Under the pieces are notes generated by a model. That model was not told where the DNA came from. It made no database searches and saw only the letters and a list, made by a program, of their open reading frames with translations. The position numbers were made by a program, and so were the translations under genes. From assembly GCA_964291265.2 (NCBI GenBank), contig OZ219747.1:3392001-3456000 (forward strand): 64,000 bases of DNA, read 5' to 3'. Source of the DNA: Alphaproteobacteria bacterium. GTDB lineage: Bacteria; Pseudomonadota; Alphaproteobacteria; SP197. Positions 14,979-52,011 of the stretch are shown piece by piece; position 1 is the stretch's first letter, and every line of letters begins with the position of its first letter.

Positions 14979-15160
14979 CAGGACCATTCTGTTGTCGCGA
15001 TCGGCGGTGGATAACCGGGTCAGAGGCCGTTCTTGAAGTGGGTGGCACCTTCTCGATGTCGGAACCGGTATATCGACAACGAAATCCTGTCCCGAATGGA
15101 CCTCCAGATCTACCTACAACGCCCCTTCATCGGACGAAACCGGACAAAAGAAGAGCCCTG
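14979..15160. mobile_element. 182-bp MITE, copy 1 (ISAs1-like ends)
   Basis: Ends caggaccattctgttgtc / gacaaaagaagagccctg (14/18 inverted match); perfect 10-bp direct repeat aagcgaattc at 14969-14978 and 15161-15170; second copy at 50130-50312. Confidence 0.9.
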
Positions 15161-15244: not shown

Positions 15245-15847
15245 ATGTCAGAGGCCATCGGGTTCGATACACACCGCTTCGTCAAGCACCTGACCGACTG
15301 CGGCTTCACCGAGCAGCAGGCCGAGGCGCTTGTCGACGAGCAGGTCGCCCTGCTCGACGCCAAGCTGGCGACGAAGACCGACATCGCGGAGATCAACGCC
15401 AACCTGGCGACGAAGACCGACATCGCGGAGATCAAGACCGACATCGCGGAGATCAAGACCGATGTCGCGGAGATCAAGACCGATGTCGCGGAGATCAAGA
15501 CCGACATCGCGAGGCTCGAGGCCGACATGGCGACGAAGACCGATGTCGCGGAGATCAAGACCGACATCGCGAGACTCGAGGCCGACATGGCGACGAAGAC
15601 CGATGTCGCGGAGATCAAGACCGACATCGCGAGGCTCGAGGCCGACATGGACGCGCTGCGCCAGGAGACCAAGGCAGGCATCGACGCGGTGCGCCAGGAA
15701 AACGCAACCGCCATGGCGGAAAACGCAACCGCGATGGCGAGGCTCGAGACGCGCATGGAGTCGATCAAGTCCGATCTGTTGAAATGGATGATCGGCCTGA
15801 TGATCGGTCTGGGAGGGTTGATGGTCGCCTTCGTCAGATTTCTGTAG
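15245..15847 (+). CDS. DUF1640/CCDC90-like coiled-coil membrane-anchored protein (200 aa)
   Basis: FDTHRFVKHL...GFTEQQAE head, ATKTD motifs, heptad repeats KTD(I/V)AEI, C-terminal TM LLKWMIGLMIGLGGLMVAFV. Confidence 0.85.
   Translation: MSEAIGFDTHRFVKHLTDCGFTEQQAEALVDEQVALLDAKLATKTDIAEINANLATKTDIAEIKTDIAEIKTDVAEIKTDVAEIKTDIARLEADMATKTDVAEIKTDIARLEADMATKTDVAEIKTDIARLEADMDALRQETKAGIDAVRQENATAMAENATAMARLETRMESIKSDLLKWMIGLMIGLGGLMVAFVRFL
15367..15740 (+). repeat. Intragenic in-frame tandem repeats (21-bp, 33-bp and 60-bp units)
   Basis: aagaccga(c/t)(a/g)tcgcggagatc repeated; KTDVAEIKTDIARLEADM x3; ENATAMA x2. Confidence 0.9.
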
Positions 15848-16917: not shown

Positions 16918-17322
16918 ATGTCAGAGGGCATCGCGTTCGATACACACCGCTTCGTCAAGCGCCTGACCGACTGCGGCTTCACCGAGCAGCAGGCCGAGGT
17001 GCTTGTTGACGAGCAGGTCGCCCTGCTCAACGGCAACCTGGCGACGAAGACCGACATCGCGGAGATCAAGGCCGACATCGACGCGGTGCGCCAGGAGACC
17101 AAGGCGGGCATCGACGCGGTGCGCCAGGAGACCAAGGCGGGCATCGACGCGGTGCGCCAGGAAAACGCAACCGCCATGGCGGAAAACGCAACCGCCATGG
17201 CGAGGCTCGAGACGCGCATGGAGTCGATCAAGTCCGATCTGTTGAAATGGATGATCGGTCTGATGACTGGCCTGCTGATCGGTCTGGGAGGGTTGATGGT
17301 CGCCTTCGTCAGATTTCTGTAG
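16918..17322 (+). CDS. DUF1640/CCDC90-like coiled-coil membrane-anchored protein (134 aa), paralog of 15245-15847
   Basis: Near-identical head and TM; stalk has DAVRQETKAGI x2 instead of the KTDIAEI array. Confidence 0.85.
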   Translation: MSEGIAFDTHRFVKRLTDCGFTEQQAEVLVDEQVALLNGNLATKTDIAEIKADIDAVRQETKAGIDAVRQETKAGIDAVRQENATAMAENATAMARLETRMESIKSDLLKWMIGLMTGLLIGLGGLMVAFVRFL

Positions 17323-20210: not shown

Positions 20211-22289
20211 ATGCCTGACCGCAACTGGTGCATCGCACTTGTTCTGGGTGCTGCGGTGGCGGCGTTGCCAACCGTGGCAGCGTCCGAATCCGTCGGCAGT
20301 GGCCCCGAATTCGGCATCAACCGTGGCGCCCTGGCCTTCGACGGCGCGTGCAACGATCCCCGATTTGTCGTCAGGCAGGGACCGGATATAAGCGATCCTG
20401 CGCAGATCTTCGGCGACGCAGCGGATTGTCATGCCGCCTGGGAACGTGGTGAGATCGTCCTGCGGCAGACGGCGCACTACAGCGTAAGCGGCATGGCCGC
20501 GGTTTCCCGTCTCGACGACCTTGGCCAGCACTCCAACGGACCAGGCGACGCCCTCGGCGAGGACCAGGGTCCCTGGTCTTCGAATGGCGTGTGCAACGAC
20601 CCACGGTTCACAGCCGACCCGCGCTGGCCAGGCGCCGTCGAGCGGATTGACGATGCCGAAGGCAAGGACTCCACCGACTGCCTGCGGGCGAACCTGTTGC
20701 GCCAGGCGTGGCCGATTCGGCTTCGACTGACGGGCGGCGAGGGTCTCGTGTTCGGTGACGACAGCGGCGAGTGGGCCGGCGACGGCGAATGCGACGATCC
20801 CAGGTTCTTTGGAATCGCTGCTGCCAGCGACGCTGGCATATCCGACCTTCTGCGCGATGCTTCGGACTGTTACGACGCCTGGTCTGAAGGGCACGTCAAA
20901 CTGATCTCACCGGTTGTTGTCCTCGACCGGTTGCCGGCCGGATTCGACCTTGGCAACGACACCGGCGAATGGTCGTTCGATGGCGAATGCGATGATCCAC
21001 GGTTCGAAGGTGCCGGCACAGCTGGCGAGTTGCGAATCGAGCATCGGGCACGCGACGCAACCGATTGCGCCAGGGCTCTTCTGAACGAAGAGGTCGACCT
21101 CAAGGCCCCGAGACTTCAGGACGGAACGGAACTCTCCTTCGGAGACGACGGGAGCGATTGGGCCCATGATGGTGTGTGCAACGACCCACGCTTCGACGCC
21201 GACCCACGACAGGCGGACGCGGCTGCACGCGTGGGCAGTGCAGAGGAACATGACGCCAGCGATTGTCGGCGAGCCTTCCTCGAGCGCCGCGTGTGGCCGG
21301 TGTGGGGGCGCTCAGCGGACGACAAGGTCCTCGCGTTCGGCGACGACAGCGGCGAGTGGGCCGGCGACGGTGAGTGCGACGACCCCAGGTTTTTCGGAGT
21401 CGCTGCGGCCAGAAGCGCCAACGCGTCCAGTCTTCTGCGCGATGCGTCAGACTGTTACGAGGCCTGGTCGGAAGGGGGCATCACGCTGATCTCGCCGGTT
21501 GCCGTTCTCGACAGGCTGCGCGAAGTCGACCTTGGCAACGACACCAGCGAATGGGCGTTCGATGGCGAATGCGACGATCCAAGGTTCGAAGGCGTGGGCG
21601 TGGCGAACGAGTTGCGGATCGAACATCAGGCGCGCGATGCGACTGACTGCGCCAGGGCCCTGCTGAACGAAGAGGCCGGCCTCAAGGTCCCGAGACTTCA
21701 TGACGGAACGGAACTTTCCTTCGGAGACGACGGGGGTGGTTGGGCCCAAGATGGTGTGTGCAACGACCCACGCTTCGACGCCGATCCACGACAGGCGGGT
21801 GCGGTTGCACGCGTGGGCAATGCCGAAGAACATGACGCCAGCGATTGTCGGCGAGCCTTCCTCGAGCGCCGCGTGTGGCCGGTGTGGGGGCGCTCAGCGG
21901 ACAACAGGGAGCTCGCGTTCGGCGACGACAGCGGCCAATGGCCCCTCGACGGCGAGTGTGACGATCCCAGGTTCGTCGGAGCTGCCACCGCCGAGAGCGC
22001 CAGCGTGTCGGACCTCCTTCGTGACGCTTCGGACTGTTACGAGGCCTGGATCGCCGGGACAATCAAGCTCTTCTCGCTGGAAGATGCATCGGGCAAGATG
22101 CCGCCCGACTTCGACCTCGGCGACGACTCCGGGGAATGGGCGTTCGATGGCGAATGCGACGACCCACGGTTTCATGGTGATCACGTGGCGTCCGAGTTGC
22201 ATCCGGAGAATCGGGGACGCGACGCAACCGATTGCGGACGGGCCTTGCTGAATGGCGAGGCGGACATCACGATTCAAGCGTCGCAGTGA
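20211..22289 (+). CDS. Secreted Asp/Cys-rich repeat protein (10 x GDDSGEWxxDGECDDPRF...DAxDC)
   Basis: Signal peptide; ten copies of a two-Cys acidic motif; ~582-585 bp higher-order DNA repeat. Confidence 0.85.
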   Translation: MPDRNWCIALVLGAAVAALPTVAASESVGSGPEFGINRGALAFDGACNDPRFVVRQGPDISDPAQIFGDAADCHAAWERGEIVLRQTAHYSVSGMAAVSRLDDLGQHSNGPGDALGEDQGPWSSNGVCNDPRFTADPRWPGAVERIDDAEGKDSTDCLRANLLRQAWPIRLRLTGGEGLVFGDDSGEWAGDGECDDPRFFGIAAASDAGISDLLRDASDCYDAWSEGHVKLISPVVVLDRLPAGFDLGNDTGEWSFDGECDDPRFEGAGTAGELRIEHRARDATDCARALLNEEVDLKAPRLQDGTELSFGDDGSDWAHDGVCNDPRFDADPRQADAAARVGSAEEHDASDCRRAFLERRVWPVWGRSADDKVLAFGDDSGEWAGDGECDDPRFFGVAAARSANASSLLRDASDCYEAWSEGGITLISPVAVLDRLREVDLGNDTSEWAFDGECDDPRFEGVGVANELRIEHQARDATDCARALLNEEAGLKVPRLHDGTELSFGDDGGGWAQDGVCNDPRFDADPRQAGAVARVGNAEEHDASDCRRAFLERRVWPVWGRSADNRELAFGDDSGQWPLDGECDDPRFVGAATAESASVSDLLRDASDCYEAWIAGTIKLFSLEDASGKMPPDFDLGDDSGEWAFDGECDDPRFHGDHVASELHPENRGRDATDCGRALLNGEADITIQASQ

Positions 22290-31057: not shown

Positions 31058-31836
31058 GGGGCGCCTCGCGTACGCCGCCAGACTTCCAGCAGGCCGTGGA
31101 CGGTGATGTCGGGATCAAACCTGTCGATACTGTCGGTCGCCGCATCGAACAGGGGCGCCAGACCGCCGGTCGCCACCACCTTCATCGGTTTGCCGTATTC
31201 GGCGCGGATTCGGCCGACGACGCCTTCGATGAGGCTGACGTAGCCCCAGTAGGCGCCCGATTGCATGCAACTGACGGTGTTCGTGCCGATGACCCGCTGC
31301 GGCCGGTCAATGCCAATTCTCGGCAGGCGGGCAGAAATCCGGTGCATGGCGTCAAGAGCAAGGTTGACCCCGGGAGCGAAGACGCCTCCGGCGAATCCGC
31401 CATCCTCATCGACGACGTCAAACGTGGTCGCGGTGCCGAAGTCGATGACGATCAGAGGCCCGCCCTGACGCGTCCAGGCGCCGACCGCGTTCGCCAGACG
31501 GTCCGCCCCCACCTCGTCCGGCATGTCGATCCTGAGCGGGATGCCGAGGCGCGCCGATTCTCCCACCACAACCGGTTCGCAGTGGTGATGACGGCGACAC
31601 AGGAGCTTGAGTTCATGAAGGCCATGAGGGACGACGCTTGCGATCACCGCGTCACCGATGGCGCCGGCATCGAGGCCTTTCAGGCTCAGCAGGTGATGCA
31701 GCCACACGGCGTGTTCATCGGCAGTACGGCCGGTGTCGGCGCTGACCCGCCACTGTCCCACGAGATCATCTCCCCGGAAAACGGCAAACACCGTGTTCGT
31801 GTTGCCTGCATCGATGGCGAGAAGCAGGTCCTTCAA
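31054..31836 (-). CDS. coaX: Type III pantothenate kinase
   Basis: AIDAGNTN, VGADR, IDFGTATTFD; TTG start. Confidence 0.95.
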   Translation of the reverse strand: MKDLLLAIDAGNTNTVFAVFRGDDLVGQWRVSADTGRTADEHAVWLHHLLSLKGLDAGAIGDAVIASVVPHGLHELKLLCRRHHHCEPVVVGESARLGIPLRIDMPDEVGADRLANAVGAWTRQGGPLIVIDFGTATTFDVVDEDGGFAGGVFAPGVNLALDAMHRISARLPRIGIDRPQRVIGTNTVSCMQSGAYWGYVSLIEGVVGRIRAEYGKPMKVVATGGLAPLFDAATDSIDRFDPDITVHGLLEVWRRTRGAP

Positions 31837-31866
31837 GGCCGTGTCTCCGGCGCCGCTCGATCCGCA

Positions 31867-32362
31867 CCCTTCCCCGACCGCCGGTGCATGGCTGGCGCCA
31901 TGCGCAGGGTCCCGGACACCACCCGCATGTGACGGCCGCCCGACTCCATGATCAACGCCCCGTCATGAGCGAGTCCCACAACGCGGCCCTCCCTTCTCCG
32001 ACCGCCGGTGCATGGCTGGCGCCATGCGCAGGGTCCCGGACACCACCCGCATGTGACGGCCGCCCGACTCCATGATCAACGCCCCGTCATGAGCGAGTCC
32101 CACAACCCGGCCCTCCCTTCTCCGACCGCCGGTGCATGGCTGGCGCCATGCGCAGGGTCCCGGACACCACCCGTATGTGACGACCGCCCGACTCCATGAT
32201 CAACGCCCCGTCATGAGCGAGTCCCACAACCCGGCCCTCCCTTCTCCGACCGCCGGTGCATGGCTGGCGCCATGCGCAGGGTTCCGGACACCACCCGCAT
32301 GTGACGGCCGCCCGACTCCATGATCAACGCTCCGTCATGGGCGAGTCCGACAACCCGGCCCT
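31867..32362. repeat. 4 x 124-bp tandem repeat of the birA 3' end
   Basis: Units start at 31867, 31991, 32115, 32239; 8 variable sites in total. Confidence 0.97.
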
Positions 32363-32990
32363 GCGTGTCGATGTCTCCGCTGACAAGGGCATGGGCGCCG
32401 ATGCCGGCAGCACGGTCGAGCCAGGCGCGGCGATGGGAATAGAAACCGGAACTCTCCCAGTCCGTCACCCGGTCCTTCAGACGACGGCAGAGCGCGGCAA
32501 GAAGGAGATCGCGGTCCACTCCTCGAGCTCCCTCGCTTGCCAGATCCGTGGTGACGACATCCCTGATGGCGGGGTGGCTGACCAGATTGACGCCGATTCC
32601 GGCAATCACTGCGCTGCCAGCCGTCTCCACCAGGATCCCGGCCACCTTGGCGTCGTTCAGCAGGATGTCATTGGGCCACTTGCAGCGTGCCGGAGCAAGG
32701 TCCGGCGCCGCCGCCTCGATGGACTCGGCGACAGCCACGCCGGTGATGAGGGAGACTTGCGGGAGATCGCGGGGCGCAACGCGGGGCCTGAGAACGAAGG
32801 AGGTGTAGGAGTTGCCCGGAGGCGACACGAATTCCCGTCCCCTGCGGCCGCGTCCACTCGTCTGGACGCGCGCCCGAACCACGGTCCAGGCCGCGGCTCC
32901 GGACTCTGCCAGGGCGATGGCGACGTCATTGGTGCTCGTCACCTCGTCGCGTTCGACCAGGTGGAAGGGCGGGGGCAGCCTGGTGTTCAT
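32211..32990 (-). CDS. birA: Biotin--[acetyl-CoA-carboxylase] ligase
   Basis: STND, QTSGRGRRGR, KWPNDI, KVAGIL; C-terminus altered by the repeat. Confidence 0.94.
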   Translation of the reverse strand: MNTRLPPPFHLVERDEVTSTNDVAIALAESGAAAWTVVRARVQTSGRGRRGREFVSPPGNSYTSFVLRPRVAPRDLPQVSLITGVAVAESIEAAAPDLAPARCKWPNDILLNDAKVAGILVETAGSAVIAGIGVNLVSHPAIRDVVTTDLASEGARGVDRDLLLAALCRRLKDRVTDWESSGFYSHRRAWLDRAAGIGAHALVSGDIDTQGRVVGLAHDGALIMESGGRHMRVVSGTLRMAPAMHRRSEKGGPGCGTRS

Positions 32991-47651: not shown

Positions 47652-50048
47652 TCAGTGCGTGACCACATCTTCGGTCTCACCGACATGGCGCGCCAGCCGC
47701 TCCATCTCTTCCACGTCGGCGTCGGACCATTCCACCGGTACCGGCGTCTCGGCGAGGGCCATGTGCACGACGTCATCAACCGATGACACGGCGATGATGT
47801 TGAGTCCCCGCTTGACGTTGTCCGGAATCTCCTTGAGATCCTTTTCGTTTTCCAGCGGGATGATGACGGTCTCGATGGCGCTGCGATGGGCGGCAAGGAG
47901 CTTTTCCTTGAGCCCGCCGATGGGAAGGACACGTCCCCTCAGCGTGATCTCGCCGGTCATGGCGACGGTGCGTTTGACCGGAATGCCCGTGAGGGCCGAA
48001 AGCATCGAAATGAACATGGCGATTCCCGCCGACGGTCCGTCCTTGGGTGTGGCGCCCTCCGGCACATGGACGTGGATATCGCGCTTGTCGAAGACAGTCG
48101 GTTTCAGACCGAACTCAGGAGAGCGGGCACGCAGGTAGCTGCGCGCGGCCTGCACCGATTCCTGCATGACGTCGCCGAGCTTCCCCGTAATCGTCATCTT
48201 GCCGCGACCGGGCAGCACGACGGCCTCGATGGAAAGCAGCTCTCCTCCGGTATCCGTGTAGGCGAGGCCACTCGTGATCCCCACCATGTCGTCATACTCC
48301 ACTTCCCCGAAACGGTAGCGCCTGACGCCGGAGAACTTCTCGAGATTGCGCGATGTCACCCTGACCTTCTTCATCTCGCCGGCAACGATCATCTTGACCG
48401 CCTTGCGCTGGAGATTCGCGATCTCCCGTTCCAGATTGCGCACGCCGGCTTCCCGCGTGTAGTAGCGAATCACGTCACGAAGCGCGCCCTCGGTGATCGA
48501 CCACTCGCCGTCCTTCAGCCCATGGGCCTTGTACTGCTTGGCGATCAGGTGGTCGGTGGCGATTCTCACCTTCTCGTCTTCGGTGTAGCCGGAAAGGCGG
48601 ATCACCTCCATGCGATCAAGCAGAGCCTGGGGTATGCGGGTGGTATTGGCGGTGGTGACGAACATGACATCGGAAAGGTCGTAGTCCACCTCGAGATAAT
48701 GGTCATTGAACGACACGTTCTGCTCCGGGTCGAGAACCTCGAGAAGCGCCGAACTCGGATCGCCCCGCCAATCGCTGCCAAGCTTGTCGATCTCGTCGAG
48801 AAGGAACAGGGGATTGGATGTGCTTGCCTTCTTCATTCCCTGGAGGATCTTGCCCGGCATGGATCCGATATAGGTGCGGCGGTGGCCGCGGATTTCCGCT
48901 TCGTCGCGCACGCCACCCAGCGACATGCGCACGAACTTGCGTCCCGTCGCCCTGGCGACCGATCGGCCCAGCGAGGTCTTGCCAACGCCCGGGGGGCCGA
49001 CCAGACACAGGATGGGGCCCTTGAGCTTGCGCGAACGCGCCTGGACGGCGAGATACTCGACAATCCTCTCCTTGACCTTTTCGAGACCGAAGTGATCGGC
49101 GTCGAGAATGGTCTCGGCGTTGGTGATGTCACGCTTGAGCTTCGAACGCTTCTTCCACGGAATGGACAGCATCCAGTCAAGGTAGTTCCTGACCACCGTT
49201 GCCTCGGCCGACATCGGGCTCATCGTGCGCAGTTTCTTGACCTCCGCCAGCGCCCGTTCCCGGGCCTCCTTCGACAGACTGGTCGAATCGATCTTCTTCT
49301 CGTACTCGCCGACCTCGTCCCGGCCATCCTCACCCTCGCCGAGCTCCTTCTGGATCGCCTTCATCTGCTCGTTGAGATAGTACTCGCGTTGCGATTTCTC
49401 CATCTGCTGCTTGACCCGGCCGCGGATCTTCTTTTCCACCTTGCGCACCGAGATCTCGCCCTCGATGAGGGCATAGACGCGTTCCAGGCGCCGGACCACC
49501 GATTCGGCCTCGAGAAGTTCCTGCTTGTCGGCGATCCTGATGGTGAGATGGGAGGCGACTGTATCGACCAGCTTCGCCGGAGACTCGATCTGTTCCAGGG
49601 ACGTCACGACCTCGGGAGGGATTTTCTTGGCGAGCTTGACGTAGTCCGCGAAGAGCGCCGTCACGGCACGGGCGAGAGCCAGTTGCTGAGCCTCGTCGGA
49701 TGCGCTTTCCGCGAAGGGCGACACCACAGCCCTGATGCACCGTTCATCCTCGAGGAAATCGGTGATGGCCGCCCGGTGTGACCCCTCCACGAGCACCTTG
49801 ACCGTGTCATCGGGCAGCTTGAGGAGTTGCAGCACACTCGACACGGTTCCGACACCGTAGAGAGCGCCGGGGTCCGGATCGTCCTGGGAGCCGTCCTTCT
49901 GGGCAACCAGAAGTATCTGCCTGTCCCCGGACATGACTTCCTGCAGCGCCCGCACGGACTTCTGGCGGCCGACGAAGAGCGGCACCACCATGCCCGGAAA
50001 GACAACGATGTCCCGCAAGGGCAGCACCGGATACTGGGATTCACTCAT
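47652..50048 (-). CDS. lon: Lon protease
   Basis: GPPGVGKTS, PKDGPSAG, IGGLKEK. Confidence 0.99.
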   Translation of the reverse strand: MSESQYPVLPLRDIVVFPGMVVPLFVGRQKSVRALQEVMSGDRQILLVAQKDGSQDDPDPGALYGVGTVSSVLQLLKLPDDTVKVLVEGSHRAAITDFLEDERCIRAVVSPFAESASDEAQQLALARAVTALFADYVKLAKKIPPEVVTSLEQIESPAKLVDTVASHLTIRIADKQELLEAESVVRRLERVYALIEGEISVRKVEKKIRGRVKQQMEKSQREYYLNEQMKAIQKELGEGEDGRDEVGEYEKKIDSTSLSKEARERALAEVKKLRTMSPMSAEATVVRNYLDWMLSIPWKKRSKLKRDITNAETILDADHFGLEKVKERIVEYLAVQARSRKLKGPILCLVGPPGVGKTSLGRSVARATGRKFVRMSLGGVRDEAEIRGHRRTYIGSMPGKILQGMKKASTSNPLFLLDEIDKLGSDWRGDPSSALLEVLDPEQNVSFNDHYLEVDYDLSDVMFVTTANTTRIPQALLDRMEVIRLSGYTEDEKVRIATDHLIAKQYKAHGLKDGEWSITEGALRDVIRYYTREAGVRNLEREIANLQRKAVKMIVAGEMKKVRVTSRNLEKFSGVRRYRFGEVEYDDMVGITSGLAYTDTGGELLSIEAVVLPGRGKMTITGKLGDVMQESVQAARSYLRARSPEFGLKPTVFDKRDIHVHVPEGATPKDGPSAGIAMFISMLSALTGIPVKRTVAMTGEITLRGRVLPIGGLKEKLLAAHRSAIETVIIPLENEKDLKEIPDNVKRGLNIIAVSSVDDVVHMALAETPVPVEWSDADVEEMERLARHVGETEDVVTH

Positions 50049-50083: not shown

Positions 50084-50112
50084 AAATGGCTACGACAGGG
50101 CGCCCGATCAAG
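50084..50112 (-). promoter_or_regulatory. Possible sigma32-type lon promoter
   Basis: CTTGAT-17 nt-CCATTT upstream of lon. Confidence 0.35.
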
Positions 50113-50129
50113 GGGCAGGGCCCGTGGGC

Positions 50130-50312
50130 CAGGACTATTCTTTTGTCCGGTTTCGTCCGACGAGGGGCGTTGTAGGCAGATCTGGAGGTCCATTCGTGAC
50201 CGGATTTCGTTGTCGATATGCCGGTTTCGACCTCGAGAAGGTGCCACCAAACTCAAGAACGGTCACTCTGACGCGGTTGTCCACCGCCGATCGCGACAAC
50301 AGAAAGGTCCTG
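50130..50312. mobile_element. 183-bp MITE, copy 2 (inverted relative to copy 1)
   Basis: Reverse complement aligns end to end with 14979-15160 (about 90% by eye); ends caggactattcttttgtc / gacaacagaaaggtcctg. Confidence 0.9.
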
Positions 50313-50365
50313 CGGACCCCCGCCGGAGACTTGATGAAAACCCGCCCCCGGGGCAGGATGCGCCC

Positions 50366-50707
50366 ATGATGTCGTCCTTCGACACCCTCGCTGCCGCTGA
50401 GGCTCTCCAGGACGCCGGCGCGAAGCCCGAACTCGCCAAGGCCATGGCCGCCCAGCTCAAGGCCGCGGCGAAAGCCGGCGAACCCGTCACAAGACCCGAA
50501 CTCGACGCCGCTCTCGGCACACTCAAGGCCGAACTTCTTGAACGAATCGCCGCGACCGAGACGCGCCTGCTCGGACGCATCGCCGAGACGGAACGCCGGC
50601 TGATGGACCGCACGGCCGCCCTCGTCTGGCGGCTGTTCGGCGCCATGGTCGCGCTCGCCGGCATCACCGTCGCGACGCTCGAATACCTGCGCACACCACA
50701 GGACTGA
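50366..50707 (+). CDS. DUF1640/CCDC90-like coiled-coil membrane protein (113 aa)
   Basis: FDTLAAAEALQDAG head, VTRPEL neck, 11-residue repeats, C-terminal TM; stop codon overlaps the TIR; TTGATG-17-CAGGAT-6-ATG upstream. Confidence 0.78.
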   Translation: MMSSFDTLAAAEALQDAGAKPELAKAMAAQLKAAAKAGEPVTRPELDAALGTLKAELLERIAATETRLLGRIAETERRLMDRTAALVWRLFGAMVALAGITVATLEYLRTPQD

Positions 50708-50748
50708 CAAAAGAATGGTCCTGGCGCGCGGGCGGCTGCTCCGGGGGA

Positions 50749-52011
50749 TCACGATGCCGGCGTCGCCTCGCCTTCCCGATCGCCATAGATGAGCATGGGT
50801 GCGGAACCGCGCTCCACGGTTTCGCTGTTCACCACGACGTTCTGAACGTTCTCCATGCCTGGCAGTTCGTACATGGTATCAAGCAGTATGGTCTCGAGAA
50901 TGGAACGCAGCCCCCGTGCCCCGGTCTTGCGGGCAATCGCCTTGCGCGCCACCGAGCGCAGGGCGTCTTCGGTGAAGTCAAGCTCGATGTCGTCCATCTC
51001 GAAGAGTTTCTGATACTGCTTCACCAGGGCATTGCGGGGTTCGCGGAGAATCTTCACCAGGGTTTCCTCGTCCGGTTCATCGAGCGTCGCAATGACCGGA
51101 AGCCGGCCGACGAACTCCGGAATCAGTCCGTACTTGAGCAGGTCCTCGGGTTCCACGTCCCGCAGGATGGCGCCAAACTGGCGGTCCTCCGGCGTTCGCA
51201 GGTCAGCGCCGAAGCCGATGGCGGTCGACTTTCCGCGAGCGGTGATGATCCTGTCGAGTCCCGAGAAGGCGCCGCCGCAGATGAACAGGATGTTGGTCGT
51301 GTCGACCTGCAGGAACTCCTGGAGCGGATGCTTGCGTCCACCCTGGGGCGGCACCGAAACAACCGTGCCTTCCATGATCTTCAGGAGGGCCTGCTGCACA
51401 CCCTCACCGGAGACATCCCGCGTAATCGAAGGGTTCTCGGACTTGCGCGCGATCTTGTCCACCTCGTCGATGAAGACGATGCCGCGCTGGGCCCGTTCGA
51501 CATTGTAGTCGGCCGCCTGCACCAGCTTGAGGATGATGTTCTCGACGTCTTCGCCGACATAGCCGGCTTCCGTCAGGCTCGTGGCATCCGCCATGGCGAA
51601 GGGAACGTCGGTGATGCGGGCCAGGGTCTGGGCAAACAGCGTCTTGCCGGAGCCCGTGGGTCCGATGAGCATGATGTTGGATTTCGCCAGCTCGACCTGC
51701 TCGCTGCGATCCCCGCCGTCGAGCCTCTTGTAGTGGTTGTGGACCGCCACGGAGAGGATTCGCTTGGCGGTGTCCTGGCCGATCACGTATTCCATGAGGA
51801 TGGCGTTGATCTCGCGCGGTGTCGGAACATCGCCCCGCGGCGACCTGACCACCGATCCGCGATTCTCCTCGCGGATGATGTCCATGCAGAGTTCGACGCA
51901 CTCATCGCAGACGAACACCGTCGGACCGGCGATCAGCTTGCGGATCTCGTGCTGGCTCTTGCCGCAAAAGGAACAGTAGAGCGTGTTCTTCGAGTCGCCC
52001 TTCTTGCTCAT
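50749..52011 (-). CDS. clpX: ClpX ATPase
   Basis: CSFCGK zinc finger, [11 protein letters not shown] loop. Confidence 0.99.

Follow-up and report, generated by a model that had tools for sequence, protein, structure and literature searches.

The DNA that we analysed, hereafter the window, is a stretch of 64,000 nucleotides in which clpX and lon lie next to each other on the minus strand, with clpX ending at 50749 and lon starting at 50048. The spacer between them harbours, at 50130-50723, a 594-bp insert (the cassette, or locus A) made of foreign DNA with one small gene between two transposon ends. Its left part is a 183-bp MITE (50130..50312, plus strand), supported by BLAST against the genome and by a catalogue of target site duplications (TSDs), which has 18-bp terminal inverted repeats (TIRs) of the ISAs1 type, the outer one forming the left end of the cassette. 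Captured foreign DNA follows (50313..50697, plus strand) and comprises an upstream region and the gene body, recognised by homology to pilus-operon loci that starts at the first base after the MITE. Within it, a likely promoter (TTGATG-17 nt-CAGGAT, 50331..50359, plus strand), identified by comparison with homologs, stands 6 nt before the ATG of a gene for a 113-aa DUF1640/CCDC90-like protein (50366..50707, plus strand) with an FDT head, a coiled coil and a hydrophobic C-terminus. On the right, an 18-bp TIR at 50706-50723 overlaps the TGA stop codon and matches the reverse complement of 50130-50147, the far end of the MITE, at 17 of 18 positions. There is no transposase inside the cassette; a passenger gene is present, bounded by inverted repeats of an IS family. 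The outer flanks, GCCCGTGGGC and GCGCGCGGGC, agree at 8 of 10 positions and, from the comparison of the flanks and the empty site described below, represent the left (50120..50129) and right (50724..50733) copies of a 10-bp target duplication, while the flanks of the MITE taken alone agree at 0 of 10. A preliminary description of this DNA had reported the coordinates of the MITE and of the third TIR with its 17/18 match, the 113-aa gene, the 8/10 flanks, the lack of a TSD for the MITE alone and the TSD of another MITE copy in the window, and all of these hold.

Comparison with genus relatives confirmed that the insertion is real and that its site is empty in them. The anchored spacer is 760 bp long here, against 156 bp in G001, the closest of these relatives, and 155 bp in each of G011, G004 and G016; it is thus shorter by exactly 604 bp (594 + 10) in G001 and by 605 bp in the other three. 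Once the element and one 10-mer are removed from the window, G001 aligns without a gap across the site, and the length gain is therefore 594 + 10 bp. The idea of a TIR-bounded passenger cassette without transposase at a clean site, and the prediction of an empty clpX-lon site in relatives, were both borne out. More distant relatives have spacers of 127-253 bp, which are uninformative at the base level. A search of 18 genus relatives with the 2-kb region as query returned only short weak matches to the insert, neither the MITE nor the cassette was found in any of 22 genus relatives with the 614-bp cassette as query, and a spacer pattern for a conspecific empty allele gave 0 matches in metagenome contigs. 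Just outside the insertion, at 50084-50112 (minus strand), lies a motif that resembles a heat-shock-type promoter for lon; its ATCAAG hexamer is conserved in close relatives, and the cassette therefore seems to spare it.

The ends of the cassette belong to a family that is well represented in the genome. The MITE gave 24 BLAST matches, or about 23 copies, ten of which have their own perfect 10-bp TSD. The cognate IS is about 2.1 kb long and encodes a protein with DruA, DDE_Tnp_1_assoc and DDE_Tnp_1 domain matches (PF13808, 53.6 bits, and PF01609, 24.3 bits, both above the cut-off). Six IS copies have 10/10 duplications, and a 597-aa reading frame is intact in three of the five full-length copies. 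The identification of a cognate transposase, called for in the preliminary description, has thus been achieved, and these intact copies appear to provide, in trans, the transposase source for the cassette ends. Elements of the ISAs1 family have ends starting with CAGG and generate duplications of about 10 bp. We take the DDE_Tnp_1_assoc and DDE_Tnp_1 pair together with the CAGG ends as marking this IS as ISAs1-type, and the N-terminal DruA domain (PF14236) presumably makes it longer than the textbook form. The copy at C2:2532061-2534154 is an example, with a 597-aa transposase carrying the N-terminal DruA (DUF4338) domain. DNA relatives of this IS occur in 4 of 22 genus genomes, and no paper on an ISAs1 element with DUF4338 was found in the open-access literature. 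At C2:2970980-2972190, a MITE lacking a TSD and the left end of an IS are 34 bp apart, forming another MITE/IS neighbour pair, and this MITE is the closest to that of the window (94.5%).

We examined 41 element-opening ends: 16 of them (10 MITE and 6 IS) have a closing partner at 10/10 and one has a partner at 9/10, which sets the duplication length of the family at 10 bp. By the standard of this MITE/IS family, the 8/10 of the window cassette is a poor match; at 2-3% divergence, two or more TSD mismatches would be expected only 1.6-3.5% of the time. The insertion may therefore be older or less clean than a model of composite deletion implies. Alternatively, the two mismatches would be accounted for if the target was palindromic and each copy had acquired one substitution.

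The cassette had been considered as built from MITE ends alone, a view that its right end does not support. The 28-mer at 50696..50723 (plus strand), which contains the 18-bp TIR and whose first two bases, the CC at 50696-50697, are common to the gene, occurs at 12 other places in the genome, identically at six IS right ends and near-identically at six more, and the same IS sequence precedes it at 11 of the 12. To judge from these matches, the third TIR is not a MITE end but belongs to a remnant of the 2.1-kb DruA-ISAs1 IS, of whose right end the final 26-28 bp are left. The possibility that a mini-element, a 25-bp hairpin located at the right end of the IS, defines the junction was also considered and rejected: one further base comes from the IS, and the folding is unremarkable (z -0.77 to -1.93).

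The same MITE-gene junction is found at two other loci, B and C. Locus B is a unit of 3,488 bp (3.5 kb) at C2:4086068-4089555 (C2:4089555-4086068 in MITE-to-IS order), in which the MITE is followed by the same gene with its native end PAG*, 240 bp from the donor, about 0.47 kb from a different multicopy transposase gene, a fragment that we take to be IS1634-like, and a full IS. Its flanks match at only 6 of 10 positions as long as they include a multicopy insert of 1.78 kb that has group II intron matches in Rfam; with this insert removed, they match at 10 of 10: the left flank reads GATCC, the 1.78-kb insert and GAGCA, and the right flank GATCCGAGCA. The inner pairings give 1/10 for the IS alone and 5/10 for the MITE alone. 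G013 runs collinear through the site and has just one 10-mer there; among the four relatives aligned, the empty site is clear in this one only, the other three having shorter, diverged spacers. As the outer ends share one TSD, the left end of the MITE and the right end of the IS moved the gene as one 3,488-bp unit, and locus B has the structure of a composite transposon of MITE and IS. The intron-like element in its flank (C2:4089561-4091336) has at least five more copies, about 98-99.8% identical, with no obvious long reading frame seen; its structure comprises a 780-bp body and a 108-bp 3' end, both duplicated, one pair of copies stands in tandem, and some copies lie inside ISAs1-type ISs at about position 1615.

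Locus C (C2:1455175) retains only the left part, surrounded by nested fragments of ISs and introns close to a tRNA gene; it has no recognisable right end or TSD, and no TSD partner was found among 75 catalogued ends. The orthologous tRNA-adjacent site holds a distant paralog (41% identity) in G004, at C2:191046-191252, and about 18 kb of other DNA in G013; this site is likely an island hotspot. Locus A differs from locus B at 10 of 548 aligned bases and from locus C at 24 of 566, and has private substitutions and indels relative to both. Locus B in turn has a private 20-bp deletion in its MITE, absent from A, and a frameshifted transposase. These features indicate that A and B are sisters derived from a common ancestor, rather than B being the parent of A.

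We then considered the origin of the passenger gene. A search with its protein matched 57 proteins. In another alphaproteobacterial assembly, three loci encode proteins 69-88% identical to it and match the DNA of the cassette from the first base after the MITE. There the homolog gene lies antisense within a block that encodes a T2SSE-type ATPase, a weak T2SSF match and prepilin-like ORFs, and the synteny of this donor block extends to four further loci (L038, L039, L043 and L050). TIRs were found at none of the 37 homolog loci scanned, and no close copy of the donor block was found in the window's own genome. We infer that the block belongs to a type IVb pilus region of a conjugative element, and the gene with its promoter was likely captured from such a pilus-operon mobile element, as the homologous sequences suggest. 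The candidate promoter has a TTGAC hexamer at its position in all 13 homolog loci displayed, so that it would have travelled with the gene and not come from the MITE, although a promoter scan called no sigma-70 consensus site there. In one assembly, a pilus-operon element of more than 10 kb is present in three copies (L035, L036 and L037) at 94-99% identity, which differ in the number of coiled-coil repeats of the passenger-gene homolog. In seven homolog loci the match ends about 240 bp downstream of the gene. We envisaged a separate mobile unit with its limit at this point and discarded it, since the stretch belongs to a convergent donor gene, of which it is the 3' end and whose remainder follows in those loci. 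The passenger protein had no confirmed locus among 601 candidates in metagenome contigs or among 40 in viral contigs.

The protein itself seems to resemble the DUF1640/CCDC90 family (PF07798; CCDC90B, PDB 6H9M) in its FDT head, two short helices, long helix and hydrophobic C-terminus. It differs from that family in lying below the Pfam cut-off and represents a divergent subfamily: the 113-aa protein has no PF07798 match over the cut-off, and three of 37 homologs match at E<=0.01, with a best value of 8e-4. The FDT head aligns with a true PF07798 member at 79% over 27 columns (hhalign). The predicted structure is a helix-helix-long helix arrangement (pLDDT 71, pTM 0.30). Fold and PDB searches returned no significant match; 6H9M ranked second by sequence (E 0.69) and first by fold (E 0.88), neither being significant. 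Atlas matches (0.91-0.92) lay in clusters that are 10-32% CCDC90-like. The label DUF1640-like is therefore fair, without establishing membership of PF07798. Proteins of the DUF1640/CCDC90 type are membrane-anchored trimers, and by analogy with the family the passenger most likely acts as a membrane-anchored coiled-coil scaffold.

According to these results, the cassette is a transposase-free element with a MITE on one side and the terminal 28 bp of an ISAs1-type IS on the other, and it probably arose by internal deletion of a 3.5-kb MITE-plus-IS composite whose gene would have come from the pilus-operon element. The scenario that we propose would have begun with the insertion of the MITE 53 bp upstream of the gene in the foreign element, and an IS of the same family would have landed about 0.7 kb downstream. 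The whole block then moved as one unit by its outer ends, a step to which the TSD of locus B attests. Next, a sister copy would have lost everything between the third-last codon of the gene and the last 26 bp of the IS. Indeed, locus A tracks B as far as the CC at 50696-50697, beyond which it has the final 26 bp of the IS, while B and C continue with the native gene end where A has the IS-identical 28-mer. The deletion would have been joined at this CC microhomology, of only 2 bp, and would have left the gene intact, ending on a stop codon that belongs to the IS: in A the last codons, PQD*, are supplied by the IS and replace PAG*, and the stop falls at the same codon position as the native one. 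The protein is thus whole, and it is without the internal coiled-coil repeats of copies B and C. That the deletion kept the gene whole hints that its product may be useful to the host. Finally, as the empty sites show, the unit entered the clpX-lon spacer with a 10-bp duplication.

Whether the deletion preceded or followed this insertion is a closely balanced matter, with a slight preference for trimming in place. The preliminary description had treated the 594-bp form as the unit that moved; it could not be upheld as such, the form being single-copy and a 3.5-kb sister with its own IS existing. As one branch of the scenario above, a cassette formed elsewhere and mobilised in trans, a true mobile insertion cassette, has somewhat less than an even chance. 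Both outer TIRs are intact, intact transposases are present in the genome, 183-bp MITEs with the same ends are moved in trans and have perfect TSDs, and the deletion halts just short of the TIR with the gene kept whole. Against this, no second copy of the junction was found in the genome, the cassette is absent from all 22 genus relatives, and clpX ends 26 bp beyond the TIR and would bound a deletion in place anyway. Moreover, a parallel deletion derivative at C2:1338721-1340591, with 36 bp of the IS right end left and a perfect TSD, has damage in its left TIR as well, which points to trimming in place.

One could imagine two separate events at this spot, an IS that inserted and decayed to its right end and a MITE-gene block brought in by recombination or by another insertion, in which case the flanks would not be a single TSD. 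The atypical 8/10 match and the density of nested, rearranged elements in this genome would suit such a history, which is nevertheless improbable, since the gain relative to G001 is exactly 594 + 10 bp, locus B shows the same end pairing and orientation with a perfect TSD, and random genomic 10-mer pairs reach 8/10 or better in only about 0.1% of cases. That the junction or the TSD mismatches stem from mixed strains or a collapsed repeat is harder still to credit, and is the least probable of the readings considered here. The genome is repeat-rich and was examined at the level of the assembly; however, that assembly consists of two contigs and is 100% complete, locus A differs from B and C by private substitutions and indels, and the frame is open through the junction.

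We also asked whether the MITE drives a system that specifically spreads DUF1640-like membrane genes, as had been suggested. The genome has 10 DUF1640-like loci. Three of these genes follow a MITE, and a fourth, canonical CCDC90-like gene at 15245 has a MITE upstream (14979..15160, minus strand). The expectation that other TIR-bounded paralogs exist was thus correct as far as it goes, but it concerns only three of ten loci and a single capture, because these three share one MITE-gene junction. The other seven loci are not enclosed, the fourth MITE being an independent one with its own perfect 10-bp TSD, and the 37 homolog loci scanned in other genomes lack such ends, as noted above. In addition, two direct MITE copies at C2:3127641-3129808 (L132:2142-4309) enclose an unrelated gene for an AAA-ATPase/PD-(D/E)XK protein between perfect outer 10-bp TSDs; the site holds one 10-mer in five relatives, with a separate 1.7-kb difference nearby. 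The cargo is therefore opportunistic, and a dedicated spreading system is very improbable. About 17 other copies of the AAA-ATPase/PD-(D/E)XK family are without MITE ends.

Several described systems resemble these elements, and the suggestion that they are of a kind not previously described does not stand, as mobile insertion cassettes (MICs) and MITE-built composites have been published. MIC231 of Bacillus cereus is reportedly a mobile insertion cassette. According to PMC5444012, such cassettes are non-autonomous IS derivatives that arose by internal deletion and carry a passenger gene, one with a MITE inside; the qnrS2 MIC of the Aeromonas plasmid pAC3 is an example, and integron mobilization units are named there as mobilised DNA with MITE ends. 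TIME-COMP, as outlined in PMC4133298, has MITE ends that mobilise the DNA between them in trans, like a composite transposon. MICs, MITEs and transporter ISs appear as standard classes in PMC3129680 and PMC9330008. The cassette shares with MICs the IS-type inverted repeats around a passenger gene and the lack of a transposase, and differs from the known ones in its hybrid ends (a complete MITE at the left, the terminal 28 bp of an IS at the right), its ISAs1 type, its coiled-coil membrane cargo and the hypothetical nature of any movement in the short form. The MITE pair at C2:3127641-3129808 is the direct equivalent of TIME-COMP and integron mobilization units. Those are Tn3-derived, with 38-bp IRs, 5-6-bp duplications and experimentally demonstrated movement, whereas the elements here have 18-bp TIRs and 10-bp duplications, and their movement is read from genomes only. 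Locus B resembles IS composite transposons in using the outer ends of two elements of the same family with one TSD, except that one flank is a MITE and not a second IS. No ISAs1-derived passenger cassette was found in the open-access literature, the field of this search.

Altogether, the insert is best placed with the mobile insertion cassettes and composite transposons, an already known kind, and has an unusually complete history; it represents neither a new kind of mobile element nor a dedicated route for spreading DUF1640 genes. With donor context, full composite and pared-down product all represented, this one genome shows how a transposase-free, one-gene cassette can be born, and adds ISAs1-type ends, as well as mixed pairs of MITE and IS, to the ends that carry cargo. 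We speculate, as a possibility that we consider rather doubtful, that the DruA-fused ISAs1 family and its MITE could form a mix-and-match gene-capture kit, in which any MITE end pairs with an IS end, lifts cargo from conjugative elements and is pared down to a minimal, still mobile one-gene cassette with an IS-supplied stop codon. If this were true, one genome would hold the full birth series of a mobile insertion cassette, from donor to composite to minimal cassette, in a family for which no such cassette turned up in the open-access literature.

Other repeats are present in the window. The genes at 15245-15847 and 16918-17322 are tandem canonical CCDC90-like paralogs with 21-bp repeat expansions, and each of them lies in a block of about 1.5 kb that has been duplicated. 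At 20306-22269 there is a long gene for a repeat protein, with units of about 195 bp, and a 124-bp tandem array lies at 31743-32486.
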